In this document: piece by piece, positions 13,797-62,929 of the stretch
How the letters are laid out: each line of letters begins with the position of its first letter
Position numbering within the stretch: position 1 is the stretch's first letter
Source of the DNA: an uncultured Clostridia bacterium
GTDB lineage: Bacteria > Bacillota > Clostridia > Christensenellales > DTU072
Length of the DNA: 64,000 nucleotides
Reading direction: 5' to 3'
Assembly: GCA_944331875.1 (NCBI GenBank)
Contig: CALVJA010000006.1
Location: forward strand, 1,822-65,821
Translations under genes and position numbers: made by a program
The notes under the pieces: model-generated
Told to the model about the DNA's origin: nothing
The model's input: only the letters and a program-made list of their open reading frames with translations
The model's database searches: none

Positions 13797-14335
13797 AGTT
13801 CCGTTTTTAATACGACGTTGCCGTCCAGGTCTTTGATGGTCACAATGTTATCCTCTATCACGGCGTAGCTTTTGGGACAGCCCGATTTCGGTATCGAACA
13901 CGACGCCACGTTTATGTATTTCACGCCGTCCGAAACGAGGACGGAATTGACGTGTGTATGCCCGTATATCACGTCGTCGGCGTATCCGATGAGCGGGGGC
14001 GCCGCGGGATTTATACGGTGCCCGTGCGTGAACATGACGGACTTCGAGGCTATCTTCACTACGCGCCTTTCGGTAAACTCCGCGCCGAGTACCGCCTCGT
14101 CTACTTCGGAGTCGCAGTTACCCTTTATGTATATAACGGGTACCCGAAGTTCCTTTAACATACTGCATACCGATCTCGGAGCATATGTGTCGGGCGGGTC
14201 GTTTCTGGCACCCGAATAATTGACGTCGCCGAGGCTTACGACAACGTCCGGCTTTTCCGCGAGGATCAGCGCGGAAAGCCTTTCCATGCTTTCGGCGCTG
14301 CCGTGGAGGTCGGTGAACACGAAGTATTTAGTCAT
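13793..14335 (-). CDS. YfcE/MJ0936-family metallophosphoesterase
   Basis: 180 aa with the motifs DLHG, GDVNYSG, GNCD, THGH and GHTH. Confidence 0.75.
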   Translation of the reverse strand: MTKYFVFTDLHGSAESMERLSALILAEKPDVVVSLGDVNYSGARNDPPDTYAPRSVCSMLKELRVPVIYIKGNCDSEVDEAVLGAEFTERRVVKIASKSVMFTHGHRINPAAPPLIGYADDVIYGHTHVNSVLVSDGVKYINVASCSIPKSGCPKSYAVIEDNIVTIKDLDGNVVLKTEL

Positions 14336-35978: not shown

Positions 35979-36085
35979 ATTAATTGCTTTTTAAGGAACT
36001 TATAAGCAATGTAATGAAAAAGGGTTCATTCGTTTGAATGAACTTTTTTTCATAAGGTGGGATCGAATTCGTCAAAGAGATCAAT
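35952..36085 (+). mobile_element. T element copy T1 (MITE-like, terminator-carrying)
   Basis: TIRs are ATTGATCTCTTTGCCGAAA (35952-35970) and an imperfect right TIR (cGTCAAAGAGATCAAT) ending at 36085. HP1 is 35983-36010. The terminator hairpin GTTCATTC gttt GAATGAAC + T7 is at 36022-36050. The element overlaps the nfnB stop. Confidence 0.6.
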
Positions 36086-36271
36086 CACCGTCATCTTGCC
36101 GCATCTTTGCGGCTCTTTTCCGCAAAAGTAAACCCTCTGTTTGGGACCCAAACAGAGGCGCGGACGGGATATAGCCCGCTATTATCCCGCCCGCGTTTCG
36201 CGCAAAATAGCTCGCAAATCTACGACAATCTGCCGCCGAGTATGCTGTTCGTGGCGACAAAATACACATCA
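36086..36271 (-). repeat. S element copy S-a
   Basis: Its CACCG... end abuts T1. The P2 hairpin CCTCTGTTTGGG a CCCAAACAGAGG is at 36134-36158, and the element ends with GGCGACAAAATACAC. Confidence 0.7.
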
Positions 36272-36406
36272 ATTGATCTCTTTGCCGATAATATGTAATT
36301 GAATTGCTTTGTAAGGAGCTTACAAGCAAAGTAATGGAAAAGAGTGCATTCGTCCGAATGCGCTTTTTTTCATAAGGATAATGATTATTTCGGCAAAGAG
36401 ATCAAT
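36272..36406 (+). mobile_element. T element copy T2
   Basis: TIRs are at 36272-36290 and 36388-36406. The terminator hairpin GCATTCG tc CGAATGC + T7 is at 36344-36370. This is the only copy not adjacent to a gene end. Confidence 0.6.
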
Positions 36407-36806
36407 ACCACCGCTTTACCGCGTCTTTCGGGCTTTTGATACCGATTCAAACAAGTGCTCATATGGTTTTGAGGGGCAGATACGCCCAAATTCTACGCGC
36501 TGACCCACTAGCACGTACCGCTGCGGGTACGAGCGTCGGGGACATCGCTTGCCTTTGAACGTATCTGCCTCCTCAAAACTGCTACGCACTTCGGGAGGAA
36601 TGAAAGTCATTGCTCCCGAAGCATATTCGACTTGTTCTCATCGGTATTGACTTCCTAATATGCTTTTATTTTGGGGCGGCTCGGTCGAGTATGTTCATAC
36701 ACTACCCTCGCCGTTTCCCTCAAAATATCTCCGAAATCCACGGCAAATCGGTGCTATACACCTCATTCGAAAAAAACACTAGTACAAAGGAACTGCTGTT
36801 CACGGC
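36407..36806 (-). repeat. S element copy S-b, interrupted by element X
   Basis: It starts ACCACCGCTTTACCGCGTCTTTCGGGC. The P2 hairpin position is occupied by the 207-bp insert at 36440-36646. Homology resumes at GGGGCGGCTCGGTCGAGTATG. Confidence 0.6.
36440..36646. mobile_element. Element X: 207-bp highly structured insert with imperfect 25-bp terminal inverted repeats flanked by TTGA on both sides
   Basis: The ends are TACCGATtcaAACAAGTgctcATATG and CATATtcgACTTGTTctcATCGGTA. Internal stems are TTTTGAGGGGCAGATACG / CGTATCTGCCTCCTCAAAA and CTTCGGGAG / CTCCCGAAG. This is the only copy in the window. Confidence 0.45.
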
Positions 36807-36885
36807 TGAAGCAAATCGGCGCTATGCACGCTCTACATGGCGATAAAATACATAGTGAACTGTATTTTTCTTTCGTAGACTGCAC
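36807..36885 (-). repeat. S element fragment S-c
   Basis: GCAAATCGGCGCTATGCAC...GGCGATAAAATACATAGTGAACTGTA matches the 5' block of the S element in reverse orientation. Confidence 0.5.
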
Positions 36886-36891
36886 ACAAAA

Positions 36892-37131
36892 CCATGAACA
36901 GCAGTCCGCTTTTATTAGTGTTTTCCCTTACATATGTGTTTGGCACCGATTTGCAGACTATTTTAGCGCATTCGCGCCAGGTTTGCGTTCGCAAACTAGT
37001 GTCGTATCGCACGAAACGCAGGCGGCGCTATAGCGGGACTATGCGCCGTCCGCGCCCCGTTTTGGTCTCCAAAACGAGGTGATATTAAAGGCTTTAAGTA
37101 ATTTCGTGCGATACGGCGGGGGAAAAGACCC
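36892..37131 (+). repeat. S' variant copy S'-d
   Basis: It is the reverse complement of 48332-48547, apart from a ~30-nt insert at about 36988-37000 containing the palindrome TTTGCGAACGCAAA. P1 is GTATCGCACGAAA (37004-37016) / TTTCGTGCGATAC (37102-37114). Confidence 0.7.
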
Positions 37132-37350
37132 GTATATGTGTTTGCCCTTAAAGGAGACTACAGTCCACTGTGTATTTTGTCGCCGTGGTAAGCATACTTG
37201 GCGCCGATTTGCCGTGGATTTCGGAGCTATTTTGCGGGAAACGGCGAGGGAAGTGTATAGCATACTCGACCGAGCCGCCCCTGTTTGGTCTCCAAACAGG
37301 GGTCGGAGATTTCACGCAAAAGAGCCCGAAAGATGCGGTAAAGCGGTGGT
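37132..37350 (+). repeat. S element copy S-e
   Basis: The sequence runs GTATTTTGTCGCC...GCCGATTTGCCGTGGATTTCGGAGC...CCCCTGTTTGG tct CCAAACAGGGG...AAGCGGTGGT and abuts T3. Confidence 0.7.
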
Positions 37351-37486
37351 ATTGATTTCTTTGCCGAAAATCATTTAACCTTATGAAAAAAAGGCACATT
37401 CGGTCGAATGCACCATTTTTCGTTTCATTGCTTATAAGTTCCTTTCAAAGCAATTAAATTATCTTCTTTTCGGCAAAGAAATCAAT
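37351..37486 (-). mobile_element. T element copy T3
   Basis: TIRs are at 37351-37369 and 37468-37486. On the minus strand GGTGCATTCG ac CGAATGTGCC + T-run (37386-37414) acts as a terminator. The element abuts the permease stop codon at 37487. Confidence 0.6.
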
Positions 37487-42597: not shown

Positions 42598-42822
42598 TTG
42601 GATTTACCTCCGTAAGTATTTTTGTTCGGCAAAGCCGTTTTTTCAAAAACGAAAAACGCCATACTCCGTTTGGGCGTATGACGTCGTTATGCGCGGTATC
42701 CCGCTCTCGAGGGCGCGGCACACTGATATGCCGTACGACCCTGAGACAAAGTAAAGCACAATATGAAATTAAATTGCTTCCCTGCTCTCACGGGCGTATC
42801 CTCCTCGAGTCGTATTATCGAT
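42598..42822 (-). promoter_or_regulatory. Long structured 5' leader of the BMP ABC operon (candidate riboswitch/attenuator)
   Basis: About 225 nt lie between the predicted -10 and the RBS. A closing helix CCTCGAG/CTCGAGG (42803-42809 / 42706-42712) encloses two hairpins. It is followed by ATACGCCC aaac GGAGTAT, then GGCGT and two T-runs (42640-42680). The ACGCC segment occurs twice, allowing alternative pairing with GGCGT. Confidence 0.4.
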
Positions 42823-42828
42823 ATACCT

Positions 42829-42857
42829 ATTTTAATGAAAGCGGAAAGTATTGTCAA
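42829..42857 (-). promoter_or_regulatory. Near-consensus sigma-A promoter for the BMP ABC operon
   Basis: The minus strand reads TTGACA (42857-42852), 17-nt spacer, TAAAAT (42834-42829). Confidence 0.6.
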
Positions 42858-42875
42858 ACATTTTGGGGGAGTAAA

Positions 42876-42943
42876 TTTTTTGTTCGCTATATGATAAGAA
42901 AAATATTTACTTTACATTTACGCATGGACTTTATTCTTTGTTC
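42876..42943 (+). repeat. Isolated partial copy of the 115-bp tandem-repeat unit
   Basis: 42882-42943 is identical over 62 bp to 43203-43264. Confidence 0.8.
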
Positions 42944-43025
42944 ACGCTGAAGCTCACGCCCATATTTATATAGATATGTATAAAATTTTCGCGAACAAAA
43001 AATTCGGCGCTCGGAGCGATATTCA

Positions 43026-43152
43026 GGCTCTTTTCCATGAAATCTGTGACCCTCGTTTGGAGACCAAACGAGGGCGGCTCGGTCGAGTATGCTATACACT
43101 TCCCTCACCGTTTCACGGAAAATAGCCCTGAATCTCATCCCCGATCGCCGCC
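43026..43152 (-). repeat. S element fragment S-f
   Basis: GGCTCTTTTCCATGAAATC...CCCTCGTTTGG aga CCAAACGAGGG...GGCTCGGTCGAGTATGCTATACAC...TTTCACGG. The terminal GCGGTGG block is missing. Confidence 0.6.
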
Positions 43153-43362
43153 ATACACCCCTTCCGCGCCTTTTTCCTTGTAAATTCTTCTCGTTTTATT
43201 TTGTTCGCTATATGATAAGAAAAATATTTACTTTACATTTACGCATGGACTTTATTCTTTGTTCGCCATACACCCCTTCCGCGCCATCTGCCTTGTAAAT
43301 TCTTCTCGTTTTATTTTGTTCGCCAAATAATGGAAAATTTATTTACTATACATTTACGCAAC
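43149..43362 (+). repeat. Tandem direct repeat, about 1.9 units of 115 bp
   Basis: The unit is CGCCATACACCCCTTCCGCGCC..CTTGTAAATTCTTCTCGTTTTATTTTGTTCGC + TATATGATAAGAAAAATATTTACTTTACATTTACGCATGGACTTTATTCTTTGTT. The second unit starts at 43264 and its second half is diverged. Confidence 0.8.
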
Positions 43363-43436
43363 AACCTTAAGTTGGTTCAAGCTCTATGCTACGCGCATTC
43401 TTTTTTTACATGGTAAATTAAATTCGGCGAACAAAA

Positions 43437-43696
43437 AATTCGGCGCTCGGAGCGTTGCTCCGCCGAATGGCGGCGCAGTGATATAATTCCGCAAGCGGAA
43501 TAGTGAAATAACGCGCCCGAATGGTAGGAAGTAAAGCCGTAACGGGCGCGTTGTGAAATAAATCGACACTATAAATTTATGAAGTTAAATCAACTTTCCA
43601 AAGTGTCGATTTGTGAAATAAAATCCGCTAGAAGTTTTACAGAATGCTCAAATAAAAAAATACAGCATATCCACTCATGCTATCGTCCGCGGATTT
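43437..43696 (+). repeat. Hairpin string with GTGAAATA linkers, copy B (candidate structured RNA)
   Basis: An extra 5' hairpin is ATTCGGCG...CGCCGAAT. Then follow GTGATATA-ATTCCGC aa GCGGAAT, aGTGAAATA-ACGCGCCC..GGGCGCGT, tGTGAAATA-AATCGACAC..GTGTCGATT, and tGTGAAATA-AAATCCGC..GCGGATTT. Confidence 0.55.
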
Positions 43697-43716
43697 TGTT
43701 CAGGGTCGCTACGCTC

Positions 43717-43892
43717 CGACTTTTTGTGTCGGCTCAGCTAAAATTTTACTATGCTACGGCGCGTCTCACGAATACATACATTGAAAAGCGGTTTGCTAAG
43801 ACCCTCCGGGTATTAGCGGCACCGCCTTTCTTCGTCTGTATCCGAGATCCATCACCGTATCACAGCAAAATTTTAGCTTCACCGACACTGTG
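43717..43892 (+). repeat. P element copy P-B
   Basis: The long-range stem is GTGTCGG..AGCTAAAATTTT (43725-43746) with AAAATTTTAGCT..CCGACAC (43866-43887). The interior carries CCC tcc GGG (43801-43809), TATTA, and GCGG ca CCGC (43815-43824). Confidence 0.6.
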
Positions 43893-43932
43893 CTTCCTAA
43901 TAATCTAATGCTGAAATGCATGAGCTGCCGCA

Positions 43933-43972
43933 ATCATTTAAGTGCCACAAGCCAAAAGCTTCCGACGGCGCC
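43933..43972 (+). repeat. 40-nt block identical to 62474-62513
   Basis: TCATTTAAGTGCCACAAGCCAAAAGCTTCCGACGGCGCCG is present in islands B and D, on opposite sides of the P block. Confidence 0.85.
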
Positions 43973-43987
43973 GTGGGTGGGCGGGGC

Positions 43988-44254
43988 TTCAATCTAAAGA
44001 CCGATTTACTATAACATTGAACAGCTGTTTGCTTATACTAGTGTTTTCCCCTAAAGGCGAATACAGTCCACTATGTATTTTGTCGCCATGAATAGCATAC
44101 TTAGCGCCGATTTGCCGTGGATTTCGGAGCTATTTTTTTCGAAACAAGGACAGCGCGTATAGCATACGCGCCGACGCTGCCCCCGTTTGGTCTCCAAAGC
44201 GGGGGTCGAAGATTTCGGAAAAAAGAGCCCGAAAGACGCGGTAAAGCGGTGGCA
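43988..44254 (+). repeat. S element copy S-g (long form with 5' extension)
   Basis: It is nearly identical to 49165-49432. P1 is TTTTTTTCGAAA / TTTCGGAAAAAA, P3 is CAGCGCGTAT agc ATACGCGCcgaCGCTG, and P2 is CCCCCGTTTGG tct CCAAAGCGGGGG. The element abuts T4. Confidence 0.7.
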
Positions 44255-44388
44255 AATTGATTTCTTTGCCGAATCAGATCCCACCTTATGAAAAAAGCGC
44301 ATTCGGTCGAATGCACTCTTTTTTACTACTTGGCTTTTTAGTTCCTTTCAAAGCATTAAATTATCATCTTTTCGGCAAAGAAATCAAT
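44255..44388 (-). mobile_element. T element copy T4
   Basis: TIRs are at 44255-44273 and 44370-44388. The minus-strand terminator is at 44290-44316. The TGA stop of the PfkB gene (44384-44386) lies inside the TIR. Confidence 0.6.
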
Positions 44389-61936: not shown

Positions 61937-61955
61937 GCCAATATGTTACAAAAAA

Positions 61956-61983
61956 ACGCGCGCCTTGCGGCGTGCGTTTTTTT
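61956..61983 (+). terminator. Intrinsic terminator after PFOR
   Basis: ACGCGCGCC ttgc GGCGTGCGT (one G-U pair) followed by a T-run to 61983. Confidence 0.75.
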
Positions 61984-61987
61984 GTAA

Positions 61988-62186
61988 GTGAAATAATTCC
62001 TCTCCGAGGAATTGTGAAATAATTTTGCTCCGCAAAATTGTGAAATAAATCGGCATAATATATTTTTATCTTATAATCCACTTTCCGAAATGCCGATTTG
62101 TGAAATAAAATCCGCTAGATGTTTTATCGGTATGCCCGTATAAATAAAAACATCTTCCACACCCAATGTTCCCGTCCGCGGATTTT
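61988..62186 (+). repeat. Hairpin string with GTGAAATA linkers, copy D (candidate structured RNA)
   Basis: The units are GTGAAATA-ATTCCTC tcc GAGGAAT, tGTGAAATA-ATTTTGC tcc GCAAAAT, tGTGAAATA-AATCGGCA..TGCCGATT, and tGTGAAATA-AAATCCGC..GCGGATTT. Confidence 0.55.
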
Positions 62187-62473
62187 GTTGCGGTTTTTAG
62201 ATTTAAGATTTGTTTTTGTATTAAATCGGAGCGAAGCGACCTTTATGCCAAAATTTTTTCTTCACCGACACTATACTTCCTAATGGACTAAAATAATAAA
62301 CCGCATAACAACACCGCGCTCGCGCGGTGACTCGCCGAAAGAAATTCAACCAAGTATTAAAGGAATTTCTTTCGGCGAAAAAGGCGCCGGGAAGCGTAAG
62401 ATTGGGGCACACCCTCGACTTTATGTTTATTTATTAGTGGAGTGTCGCGTTGTAAGCCAATACCTCGCTGAAC

Positions 62474-62513
62474 TCATTTAAGTGCCACAAGCCAAAAGCT
62501 TCCGACGGCGCCG
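62474..62513 (+). repeat. 40-nt block identical to 43933-43972
   Basis: Same 40-mer as in island B. Here it precedes the P-type block instead of following it. Confidence 0.85.
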
Positions 62514-62514
62514 C

Positions 62515-62617
62515 AAGACCCTTCGGGTATTAGCGGCACCGCCTTTCTTCGTCTGTATCCGAGATTCATCACCGTATCACAGCAAAATTTTAGCTTCACC
62601 GACACTATACTTTCTAA
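62515..62617 (+). repeat. P element partial copy P-D (right half only)
   Basis: It is about 95 percent identical by eye to 43797-43900. It contains CCC ttc GGG TATTA GCGG ca CCGC and AAAATTTTAGCTTCACCGACAC. No left arm is present. A second right-arm-like copy lies at 62248-62285. Confidence 0.6.
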
Positions 62618-62689
62618 CAGGCTTTTCGGAAAAAGTTTGATAAGCAGTCAGTGGCGGTGAAAAATATTTTCCCGCCGAATTTACACTCT

Positions 62690-62865
62690 TACATAGTGTT
62701 TTCTTTGTCCTAGGTGTTTAGCGGCTGTCGGGGATGAATTTACGGATGATTTTTTGCGAAACGAGGACAGCGTGTATACCATACTCGCCGACGAAGTTTC
62801 GCAAAAAAGCGCCGTAAAGGCGCCCCGACAGGCGAAAAAAATTCGGCACTCTATCACAACCTTAT
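62690..62865 (+). repeat. Degenerate S element copy S-k
   Basis: P1 is TTTTTTGCGAAAC (62750-62762) / GTTTCGCAAAAAA (62796-62808), a perfect 13 bp. A P3-like GCGTGTAT acc ATACTCGC is present. The P2 hairpin is absent, and GCGCC gtaaa GGCGC replaces the GCGGTAAAGCGGTGG block. Confidence 0.5.
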
Positions 62866-62901
62866 AAAAAAAGCGCATATGGAGCATACAGTCCATATGC
62901 G
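62866..62901 (-). terminator. Intrinsic terminator after mnmG (T-element-like but without TIRs)
   Basis: The minus strand reads CGCATATGG actgtatgct CCATATGCG followed by a T-run. It is followed on the minus strand (preceded on plus) by the conserved CCTTATAAAAAAA context seen in T elements. Confidence 0.7.
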
Positions 62902-62929
62902 TACATACTCCTAAGGACTACCTTTCTTT

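Follow-up and report, generated by a model that had tools for sequence, protein, structure and literature searches.

Introduction

The Gut-1 RNA motif (Rfam RF01706) was described from 43 human-gut metagenome sequences and was rated 'RNA: Y, cis-regulatory: n', the sole comment being that it occurs only in gut metagenomes (Weinberg et al. 2010, Genome Biol 11:R31, PMC2864571). A literature search found no publication on Gut-1 later than that description. The present study focused on two hairpin arrays, copy B and copy D, in a stretch of 64,000 nucleotides (nt) from an uncultured Clostridia bacterium (contig CALVJA010000006.1 of assembly GCA_944331875.1), the whole of which is called the window. 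Judging from their sequence, the two arrays very probably belong to the Gut-1 family, and on the overall reading they are likely to be divergent, half-length members of it that act as a folded single strand, with the minus strand favoured. Like Gut-1, they consist of consecutive short hairpins with GUGAAAU/GUGAUAU linkers and covarying stems, are intergenic in Clostridia-like bacteria, and pass through the same GTGAAATAAAAT junction into a closing stem, here called P4. Unlike Gut-1, they hold only half of an element of ~185 nt and lack its ATTTCAC half, the loop of hairpin 3 (33–34 nt) and the interior of P4 (62 nt) contrast with the usual 3–5-nt loops or nested hairpins, they do not lie beside a tRNA gene or a gene of the PF05635 family, and the terminator is at the opposite end.

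Other described systems resemble the arrays in part. The repetitive extragenic palindromic (REP) sequences, bacterial interspersed mosaic elements (BIMEs) and REPINs of proteobacteria also combine hairpin repeats with a short conserved motif that flanks the stem and is single-stranded, and share inverted arrangements, mosaic islands at gene 3' ends and a proposed action as single-stranded DNA. However, REP stems are conserved genome-wide and go with a conserved tetranucleotide of the GTAG type, whereas array stems vary around a fixed heptamer, the copy number of arrays per genome seems low (one to few per locus), and no gene for a REP-associated tyrosine transposase (RAYT) was noticed near the arrays, no search having been aimed at such genes. 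CsrB/RsmZ sponges, TRAP/HutP sites and ToxI-type repeats likewise present a short motif at least four times per transcript with structure between, but their motif lies in loops (GGA) or in identical tandem units beside the gene of the cognate protein, while that of the arrays lies between hairpins and has a complement that is equally conserved in full elements. Finally, mini-hairpins of the d(GCGAAGC) type, reportedly described by Hirao and colleagues in single-stranded DNA origins, have the C-G-closed GNA/GNRA loops and very short stems seen here, and the exact GCGAAGC recurs in relatives of the arrays; those of phage origins are single hairpins and not an array with a linker, and the loops in the window are GGA or long.

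Two arrays with the Gut-1 layout

Both copies were read directly, and all feature coordinates were located by script (Table 1). Each copy has four linkers of the form GTGA(A/T)ATA, a perfect stem directly after each linker, and a 3' arm of that stem that touches the next linker; unit 4 is in both a 9-bp stem, AAAATCCGC/GCGGATTTT, enclosing the long interior. This arrangement of four linkers with perfect stems, present twice, had been proposed in an initial annotation made from the letters of the window, and both the direct reading and the script bear it out, as they do the start of copy D 4–5 nt past the terminator of the PFOR gene. The annotated start of copy B also stands, and its end moves from 43696 to 43697; the 2-nt loop given for its first hairpin must in practice open to 4–6 nt. 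GTGAAATA occurs eight times in the window against 1.5 expected, a number reached in none of 100 shuffled sequences, and seven of the eight fall inside the two arrays, on the plus strand. Units 3–4 of the copies are 82% identical across 89 nt. Compensatory changes, which had been claimed for the stems of the two copies, are present in stems 1 and 3, where paired substitutions leave every stem perfect, but not in unit 2, which is an unlike hairpin in each copy without point-by-point compensation. Folding exceeded that of shuffled sequences by far on both strands (plus and minus z-scores of -4.67 and -3.20 for copy D, -4.85 and -4.51 for copy B). No credible open reading frame (ORF) runs across either copy, and the overlapping ORFs have no family match.

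Table 1. Coordinates of the two arrays, the hairpins beside them and the repeat modules shared by their islands.
Feature	Position in window	Strand	Details
Copy D, half-size Gut-1-type array	61988–62186		Four linkers, hairpins 1–3, closing stem P4
Copy D linkers	61988, 62014, 62040, 62100		GTGAAATA
Copy D hairpin 1	61996–62012		ATTCCTC/GAGGAAT
Copy D hairpin 2	62022–62038		ATTTTGC/GCAAAAT
Copy D hairpin 3	62048–62098		Arms 62048–62056 and 62090–62098
Copy D P4 (hairpin 4)	62107–62115 with 62178–62186		AAAATCCGC pairs with GCGGATTTT; 62-nt interior
Copy B, half-size Gut-1-type array	43478–43697		
Copy B linkers	43478; 43503, 43553, 43613		GTGATATA at the first position, GTGAAATA at the others
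Copy B hairpins 1–3	43486–43501, 43511–43551, 43561–43611		
Copy B P4	43620–43628 with 43689–43697		Whole unit 43620–43697
Bidirectional intrinsic terminator	61950–61983		A7 / GC-rich stem / T7, between PFOR stop codon and copy D
Terminator hairpin ATTCGGCG...CGCCGAAT	43438–43468 (feature 43430–43468)	-	Followed by TTTTTTGTT; right after copy B
Weak terminator-like hairpin with T5	62176–62198	+	Just past P4 of copy D
Module common to islands B and D	43798–43900 / 62515–62617		95%
Module common to islands B and D	43866–43908 / 62249–62291 / 62583–62625		81–84%
Module common to islands B and D	43935–43975 / 62474–62514		Near-identical

A default Rfam search of the whole window gave nothing at gathering level, Gut-1 being missed because its score lies below the threshold of 50 bits. 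In a permissive search, Gut-1 was the top match and the sole family match at that level, covering 61986–62066 on the plus strand of copy D with 33.0 bits (E = 2.3e-4), and copy B scored 20.7 bits (E = 0.51). To find relatives, 185,579 genomes were scanned for three GTGAAATA with a spacing like that of the window, and the output, mostly noise, was filtered by a script that demanded a stem between consecutive linkers. About 40 loci with the window layout were retained, all from gut Clostridia metagenome-assembled genomes (MAGs), and pattern scans showed that metagenome contigs carry the layout as well. Rfam cmscan places the ~40 relatives in RF01706 with 50–82.5 bits and with matches on both strands of each element.

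A covariance model, R1, was built from 47 non-redundant relatives from genomes and metagenomes, none of them from the window; its alignment runs from the first linker to GTGAAATAAAAT, and the model has 88 positions. Across the whole window with filters off, R1 matched copy D at 61985–62111 (plus strand, 68.7 bits, E = 4.1e-13) and copy B at 43475–43590 (plus strand, 47.6 bits, E = 2.7e-8), in both cases over all 88 positions, and the next-best match in the 64 kb had an E-value of 0.9. R1 thus finds exactly the two copies, which can therefore be regarded with high confidence as true but divergent members of the family. Among the 47 relatives, 94.1% of the cells in the three stems pair, against 69.4% after shuffling and 36–45% after sliding, double-change cells number 214 against 59 in shuffles, and 17 of the 19 stem pairs show compensatory changes. 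The initial annotation was right in seeing a conserved structured element with invariant heptamer or octamer linkers between covarying helices, but its statement that no described motif has such a layout was mistaken: with four linkers and four stems per copy, the arrays have the three or more consecutive hairpins and the GUGAAAU/GUGAUAU linkers of Gut-1.

The host has no close sequenced relative, its MnmG being at most 58% identical to others (from Clostridia MAGs) and its PFOR having no exact match in the protein collection. The most conserved block of the arrays, the 18-mer TTGTGAAATAAAATCCGC, gave only chance matches in the 185k genomes and no near relative of the window copies, and a metagenome scan tuned to window-type spacing recovered only standard elements and unrelated tandem repeats. 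A repeat of the latter kind, with ~23-nt units of GTGAAA(T/C)ACTTCCACAC..., was caught by the linker pattern in a Treponema MAG (L028, 520–900) and is not Gut-1.

Full-length and half-size elements

Full-length elements are ~185 nt long and pseudo-two-fold symmetric. In the orientation of the window plus strand, they start with four GTGAAAT linkers enclosing three hairpins, continue with AAAAT and an arm, then with three or four hairpins that each have ATTTCAC behind them, a heptamer exactly complementary to the GTGAAAT linker, and end with the complementary arm and a hairpin with an A-tract before it and a T-tract after it, i.e., a bidirectional terminator. This intrinsic terminator is the integral end of the relatives even where there is no tRNA neighbour. 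The arms correspond to P4, their longest helix averaging 9.9 bp within an element against 5.4 bp between elements (40 distinct elements), and the 3' arm of full elements can alternatively make a local hairpin. The 77-nt Rfam model spans only one half of the element and matches both strands because the second half mirrors the first; its best matches on the relatives are on the strand opposite to the one that matches in the window. In the orientation chosen by Rfam the loops are UUGC/UUC, while the opposite strand reads GCAA/GAA, that is, GNRA/GNA.

A second subfamily has GTGATAT linkers, with ATATCAC in the second half. At least one ATATCAC lies downstream of 81 GTGATAT clusters and ATTTCAC downstream of one, the converse is seen for GTGAAAT clusters, and linker and complement thus switch together between the subfamilies, both of which occur in one MAG. 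Internal ATTTCAC was exact in 173 of 183 copies in scans that had not selected for it, but any comparison of its variation with that of GTGAAAT is biased, because only exact GTGAAATA was admitted by the scan patterns. In minimum-energy folds, linkers pair with anti-linkers to form stacked four-way junctions in which no residue is unpaired. On such modelling, pairing of the heptamers in cis is no more than plausible, given that single-site deviations of a linker, in mixed-type elements, are uncompensated in the partner heptamer and that one MAG has both linker types.

Some relatives are without the second half (L184, L096, L057 and L052), and the window copies belong to this half-size class, with an enlarged loop in hairpin 3 and a long interior in P4. 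No second half of hairpin-ATTTCAC units was found for them: there is no ATTTCAC cluster, and minus-strand GTGAAAT occurs in the window only at 13918 and 37309. Elements may also be in tandem, in two or three copies, as at loci L026, L104, L174, L161 and L140, the first of which interleaves them with repeated tRNA-Thr/tRNA-Tyr pairs. Copies within one locus may differ in their hairpin set, which is drawn from a recurring repertoire, and one hairpin type recurs at differing positions across elements.

Genomic context and distribution

The family is carried by cultured and uncultured Oscillospiraceae, Acutalibacteraceae, Christensenellaceae and Lachnospiraceae of humans and ruminants. Among its cultured carriers are Butyrivibrio crossotus (loci L260 and L285), Roseburia sp. 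AF12-17LB (L204) and Christensenella (L099, L221 and L269). Context was tallied for 120 elements from 106 loci. A tRNA gene lies at most 330 nt beyond the fourth linker in 40 of 91 cases, always (40/40) on the opposite strand; in the sense of the tRNA the element is therefore 36–66 nt downstream, with the terminator between. At locus L010 the neighbour is an RNase P RNA gene instead, and the element follows 17 nt behind it (1–201 and 218–296). At the other end, 27 of 109 cases have a small PF05635 gene, which points away from the element in all 27 (among others at L109, 3355–3702, and at L091, L045, L066, L010, L020, L104, L105, L070 and L030). PF05635 is the 23S rRNA intervening-sequence (IVS) protein, a four-helix bundle, and the promoter of its gene, TTGAAA-17-TATAAT, abuts the first linker where it was read (L091 and L109). 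Orientation relative to neighbouring protein genes is mildly biased (43:31 upstream, 37:19 downstream). The window copies do not have the tRNA, RNase P RNA or PF05635 neighbours of full elements at these positions; no tRNA genes were found in the window, and tblastn found no PF05635 homologue there. No family element was found in viral contigs, phages or plasmids, so that the reservation made at the outset, that the region might simply be part of a larger known mobile element, received no support.

The copies lie between different genes, PFOR and mnmG in the case of copy D, a pfkB-family kinase gene and a Bmp/PnrA ABC operon in the case of copy B. The terminator between PFOR and copy D was called at 61958–61977 by the plus-strand scan and is readable on both strands because of the A-tract upstream of its stem; on the minus strand it stands directly 3' of the last hairpin-TATTTCAC unit of copy D. 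What had been taken for an extra 5' hairpin of copy B is indeed a hairpin, but since it has no T-run behind it on the plus strand it is a minus-strand-only terminator that follows the array, and it is absent from the simple scan list because its loop exceeds 8 nt. Past P4 on the plus strand, the weak hairpin of copy D (six pairs including G-T, scanned at 62176–62193) has a comparable counterpart in copy B at ~43703–43727 (GGTCG..CGACT + T5).

The favoured strand

Of 296 distinct array hairpins with 3–4-nt loops, 266 are closed by C-G. Read on the strand where AT(T/A)TCAC follows the hairpin, 87 of 155 triloops are GNA and 45 of 141 tetraloops GNRA, whereas on the strand where GTGA(A/T)AT precedes it the counts are 1/155 and 0/141, chance expectation being ~6% and ~3%, respectively. 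From counts this lopsided it follows that every hairpin prefers one of the two strands, and in full elements the two halves prefer opposite strands. In the window, the minus strand gives hairpins 1 and 2 of copy D the loop C(GGA)G, which is a C-G-closed GNA triloop. That strand is G-rich as well, has an intrinsic terminator immediately 3' of both copies, and is that of the upstream genes, mnmG for copy D and pfkB for copy B, with which both copies are co-oriented. Because of these four features, the minus strand is the better candidate for the folded strand in the window, and the earlier description of the hairpins as preceded by UGUGAAAUA probably took the wrong strand, given that GNA/GNRA loops go with a following AUUUCAC, which is the minus strand here. 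Mismatches of the G-T and A-C kinds stood at 0:6 initially and at 3:9 with more data and false members removed, too few to decide. Non-Watson–Crick pairs lean towards the minus strand as well, by 8:4.

Discussion

The arrays may be viewed as modular, with short, sequence-variable but strictly Watson–Crick hairpins separated by the invariant heptamer GUGAAAU, or AUUUCAC on the other strand. They would act as a folded single strand, most likely RNA, and we lean slightly towards RNA rather than a DNA-level element because of the integral terminator in relatives and the published 'RNA: Y' rating. On the minus strand, each hairpin would be capped by a C-G-closed GNA-type loop with a single-stranded UAUUUCAC(A) behind it, and each array would lie at the 3' end of a minus-strand transcription unit, past mnmG or pfkB, leading straight into an intrinsic terminator. 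The hairpins could then serve as rigid spacers that expose or position the heptamer, which would be the functional site; that it is a recognition site is about an even chance. In full-length elements four complementary heptamers would be supplied in cis by the two inverted halves, whereas the half-size copies of the window have no such partner, which would leave their heptamers free for a partner in trans, either a protein or a complementary RNA.

Several findings weigh against this picture. Neither copy reaches the Rfam gathering score, and promoter scans of the window identified none for the arrays on either strand. Wobble pairs make up ~1% of ~1300 pairs, which is unusual for an RNA family and suggests that both strands, or the DNA, are constrained; C-G-closed GNA triloops are, moreover, the classic hyper-stable DNA mini-hairpin. 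The uncompensated linker deviations mentioned above leave pairing in cis no more than plausible. As to strand, the window copies are homologous to the terminator-distal half of the full element, and the terminator of relatives follows the array in the window-plus orientation, opposite to the favoured one. The last ATTTCAC of relatives varies between CAC, CGT and CAT (26/30/6), a variation that wobble pairing to the first GTGAAAT can accommodate on the window-plus strand alone, folding z-scores are slightly better on the plus strand, and there are the weak terminator-like hairpins past P4 on that strand. In the initial annotation the strand could not be decided, and it is indeed hard to call.

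The scarcity of wobble pairs and the dominance of C-G-closed GNA triloops would both fit hairpins that form in single-stranded DNA, on the lagging-strand template or during transfer, as in a selfish repeat of the REP/BIME kind or that of miniature inverted-repeat transposable elements (MITEs), or in the substrate of a structure-specific enzyme. Such an element would be recognised through a hairpin and its adjacent ATTTCAC and would accumulate at gene 3' ends. Full elements do consist of two halves in inverted arrangement, whose stable loops are on opposite strands, they are multi-copy, tandem and built of shuffled hairpin modules, and their polarity relative to tRNA and PF05635 genes is strict, the PF05635 family being found otherwise inside rRNA intervening sequences. 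In addition, the window copies are situated in intergenic islands of 1–1.8 kb, composed of shuffled repeat modules and mostly between convergent genes, and the favoured strand is G-rich and has the sequence of the lagging-strand template. We nevertheless regard a DNA-level element as unlikely: the stems vary between units and genomes while the heptamer alone is conserved, which is the reverse of REP elements, no transposase or RAYT-like gene was noticed beside the arrays (flanks were not searched systematically), viral contigs, phages and plasmids gave no matches, and the integral terminator of the relatives points to transcription. A plus-strand RNA, in which single-stranded GUGAAAUA linkers ahead of the hairpins would titrate an RNA-binding protein by analogy with sponges and TRAP/HutP-type sites, is doubtful. 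Rfam does model the family linker-first, that orientation has a terminator behind it in relatives, the plus strand folds slightly better, and the variation of the last heptamer suits it. But copy D begins so close behind a strong terminator that no space is left for a promoter, linker-first loops are almost never GNA or GNRA, no candidate protein is encoded nearby in the window, and a protein that reads GUGAAAU would leave the equal conservation and co-switching of AUUUCAC unexplained. Since full-length linkers have perfect complements in cis, pairing or two-strand symmetry is indicated at least as much as a protein sponge.

On the minus strand TTATTTCAC comes after the stem of every unit in the window, a canonical terminator adjoins the array, and the scan marks 62013–61995 as terminator-like, all of which would suit a cis-acting transcription barrier. 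Here, weak units of a hairpin and a U-rich (AUUAUUUCAC) pause or termination site would back up the adjacent terminator and shield neighbours from read-through, namely PFOR and the Bmp operon in the window and the tRNA genes in relatives, where the element lies between the terminator of the tRNA and the promoter that comes next. This is quite improbable, as the GTGATAT/ATATCAC subfamily is without a U-rich tract, termination needs neither a strict CAC nor a fixed heptamer length, the stem bases are AT-rich, the oppositely facing half of full elements would be purposeless, and the palindromic spacers are left unexplained. An array of binding sites in duplex DNA, such as iterons or half-sites of a ParB/Noc-like protein, is scarcely credible. 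The heptamer does occur in both orientations that switch type together, and GTGAAATA is one base off what we take to be the parS half-site, GTGAAACA, and the Noc half-site, GGGAAATA; copy D also adjoins mnmG, a gene that is usually origin-proximal in Bacillota (Firmicutes). Yet the covarying palindromic spacers would have no explanation, the spacing is irregular (24–60 bp), half-sites are never head to head, the heptamers being direct repeats separated by hairpins, and both linker types are found within one MAG.

Some further candidates were tried and rejected. No 16-mer palindrome TGTTTCACGTGAAACA, as expected of parS/Noc sites, is present in the window at up to three mismatches. DnaA boxes, Rex/CRP half-sites, integron attC sites, Tn7 ends and clustered regularly interspaced short palindromic repeats (CRISPR) fail, on reading of the sequence, in geometry, in the inverted half-site or in the spacers. 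Type III toxin-antitoxin RNAs and CRISPR arrays have identical tandem repeats, with spacers in the case of CRISPR, beside a toxin or cas gene; in the two arrays of the window no more than 8 nt are constant, the variable stretches are palindromes, and the adjacent genes are metabolic.

It could be speculated that Gut-1 is not a simple small RNA but a two-fold symmetric, two-strand device of two inverted half-arrays, an idea that we consider improbable and that would have several consequences. Each half would fold on its own strand as GNA/GNRA-capped hairpins followed by AUUUCAC, and the complementary heptamers could zip the element into a ladder of perfect four-way junctions. The half-size copies of the window would be the minimal functional module, and the strand assignment of Rfam would be only half right. 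The partner could be the PF05635 four-helix-bundle (Avd-like) protein or, alternatively, a structure-specific enzyme whose substrate is single-stranded DNA downstream of stable-RNA genes.

Since its description in 2010, Gut-1 has had the status of an orphan motif. The layout of the arrays is already catalogued under that name, and what is new is the half-size variant in a lineage without sequenced relatives. The present study adds a wider taxonomic spread, the finding that the Rfam model covers half an element, the strict polarity towards tRNA and 23S-IVS-type genes, and loops that mark a preferred strand opposite to the catalogued one. In the window copies, whose lineage is deeply divergent and whose genomic context is another one, the half-element survives alone, and such lone halves narrow down the minimal functional unit. 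The most useful outcomes are the corrected family assignment, a probable strand, and a fuller account of architecture and context; their practical value is a sharpened target for RNA-seq and binding experiments, not the assignment of a function.

Intergenic islands around the arrays

The window contains four long intergenic islands of 1–1.8 kb with lower G+C, at 35979–37486, 42616–44383 (island B), 48190–49539 and 61937–62929 (island D), most of them between convergent genes. Each is a mosaic in which shared repeat modules are shuffled and occur in both orientations, among them a 278-nt module in three copies, a 119-nt inverted pair at 96% identity and a CCCCGTTTTGGTCTCCAAAACGAGG hairpin in five copies; no Rfam match was found for these modules. 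Islands B and D have modules in common besides the array (Table 1), and since these are in differing order, the arrays do not belong to a single long duplication. A segment of ~22 nt at 43727–43748 (GTGTCGGCTCAGCTAAAATTTT) is complementary at 19 of 22 positions to 43868–43889, 120 nt downstream, and the two may form another long hairpin element; the GTGTCGGCTCAGCTAAAATTTT module recurs inverted at 48857–48902. Upstream of the Bmp operon, a 106-nt AT-rich unit starting with TTTGTTCGC is present in three copies (42828–42933, 43149–43254 and 43264–43369), and the start of the minus-strand terminator hairpin, CGAACAAAAAATTCGGCGCTCGGAGCG, is present twice (42991–43020 and 43426–43455). A near-consensus promoter on the minus strand, TTGACA-17-TAAAAT at 42857–42829, lies between these 106-nt repeats and CGAACAAAAAATTCGGCGCTCGGAGCG copies and the Bmp gene. 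Nearly all of the window has a negative GC skew on the plus strand, and its genes lie mostly on the minus strand.

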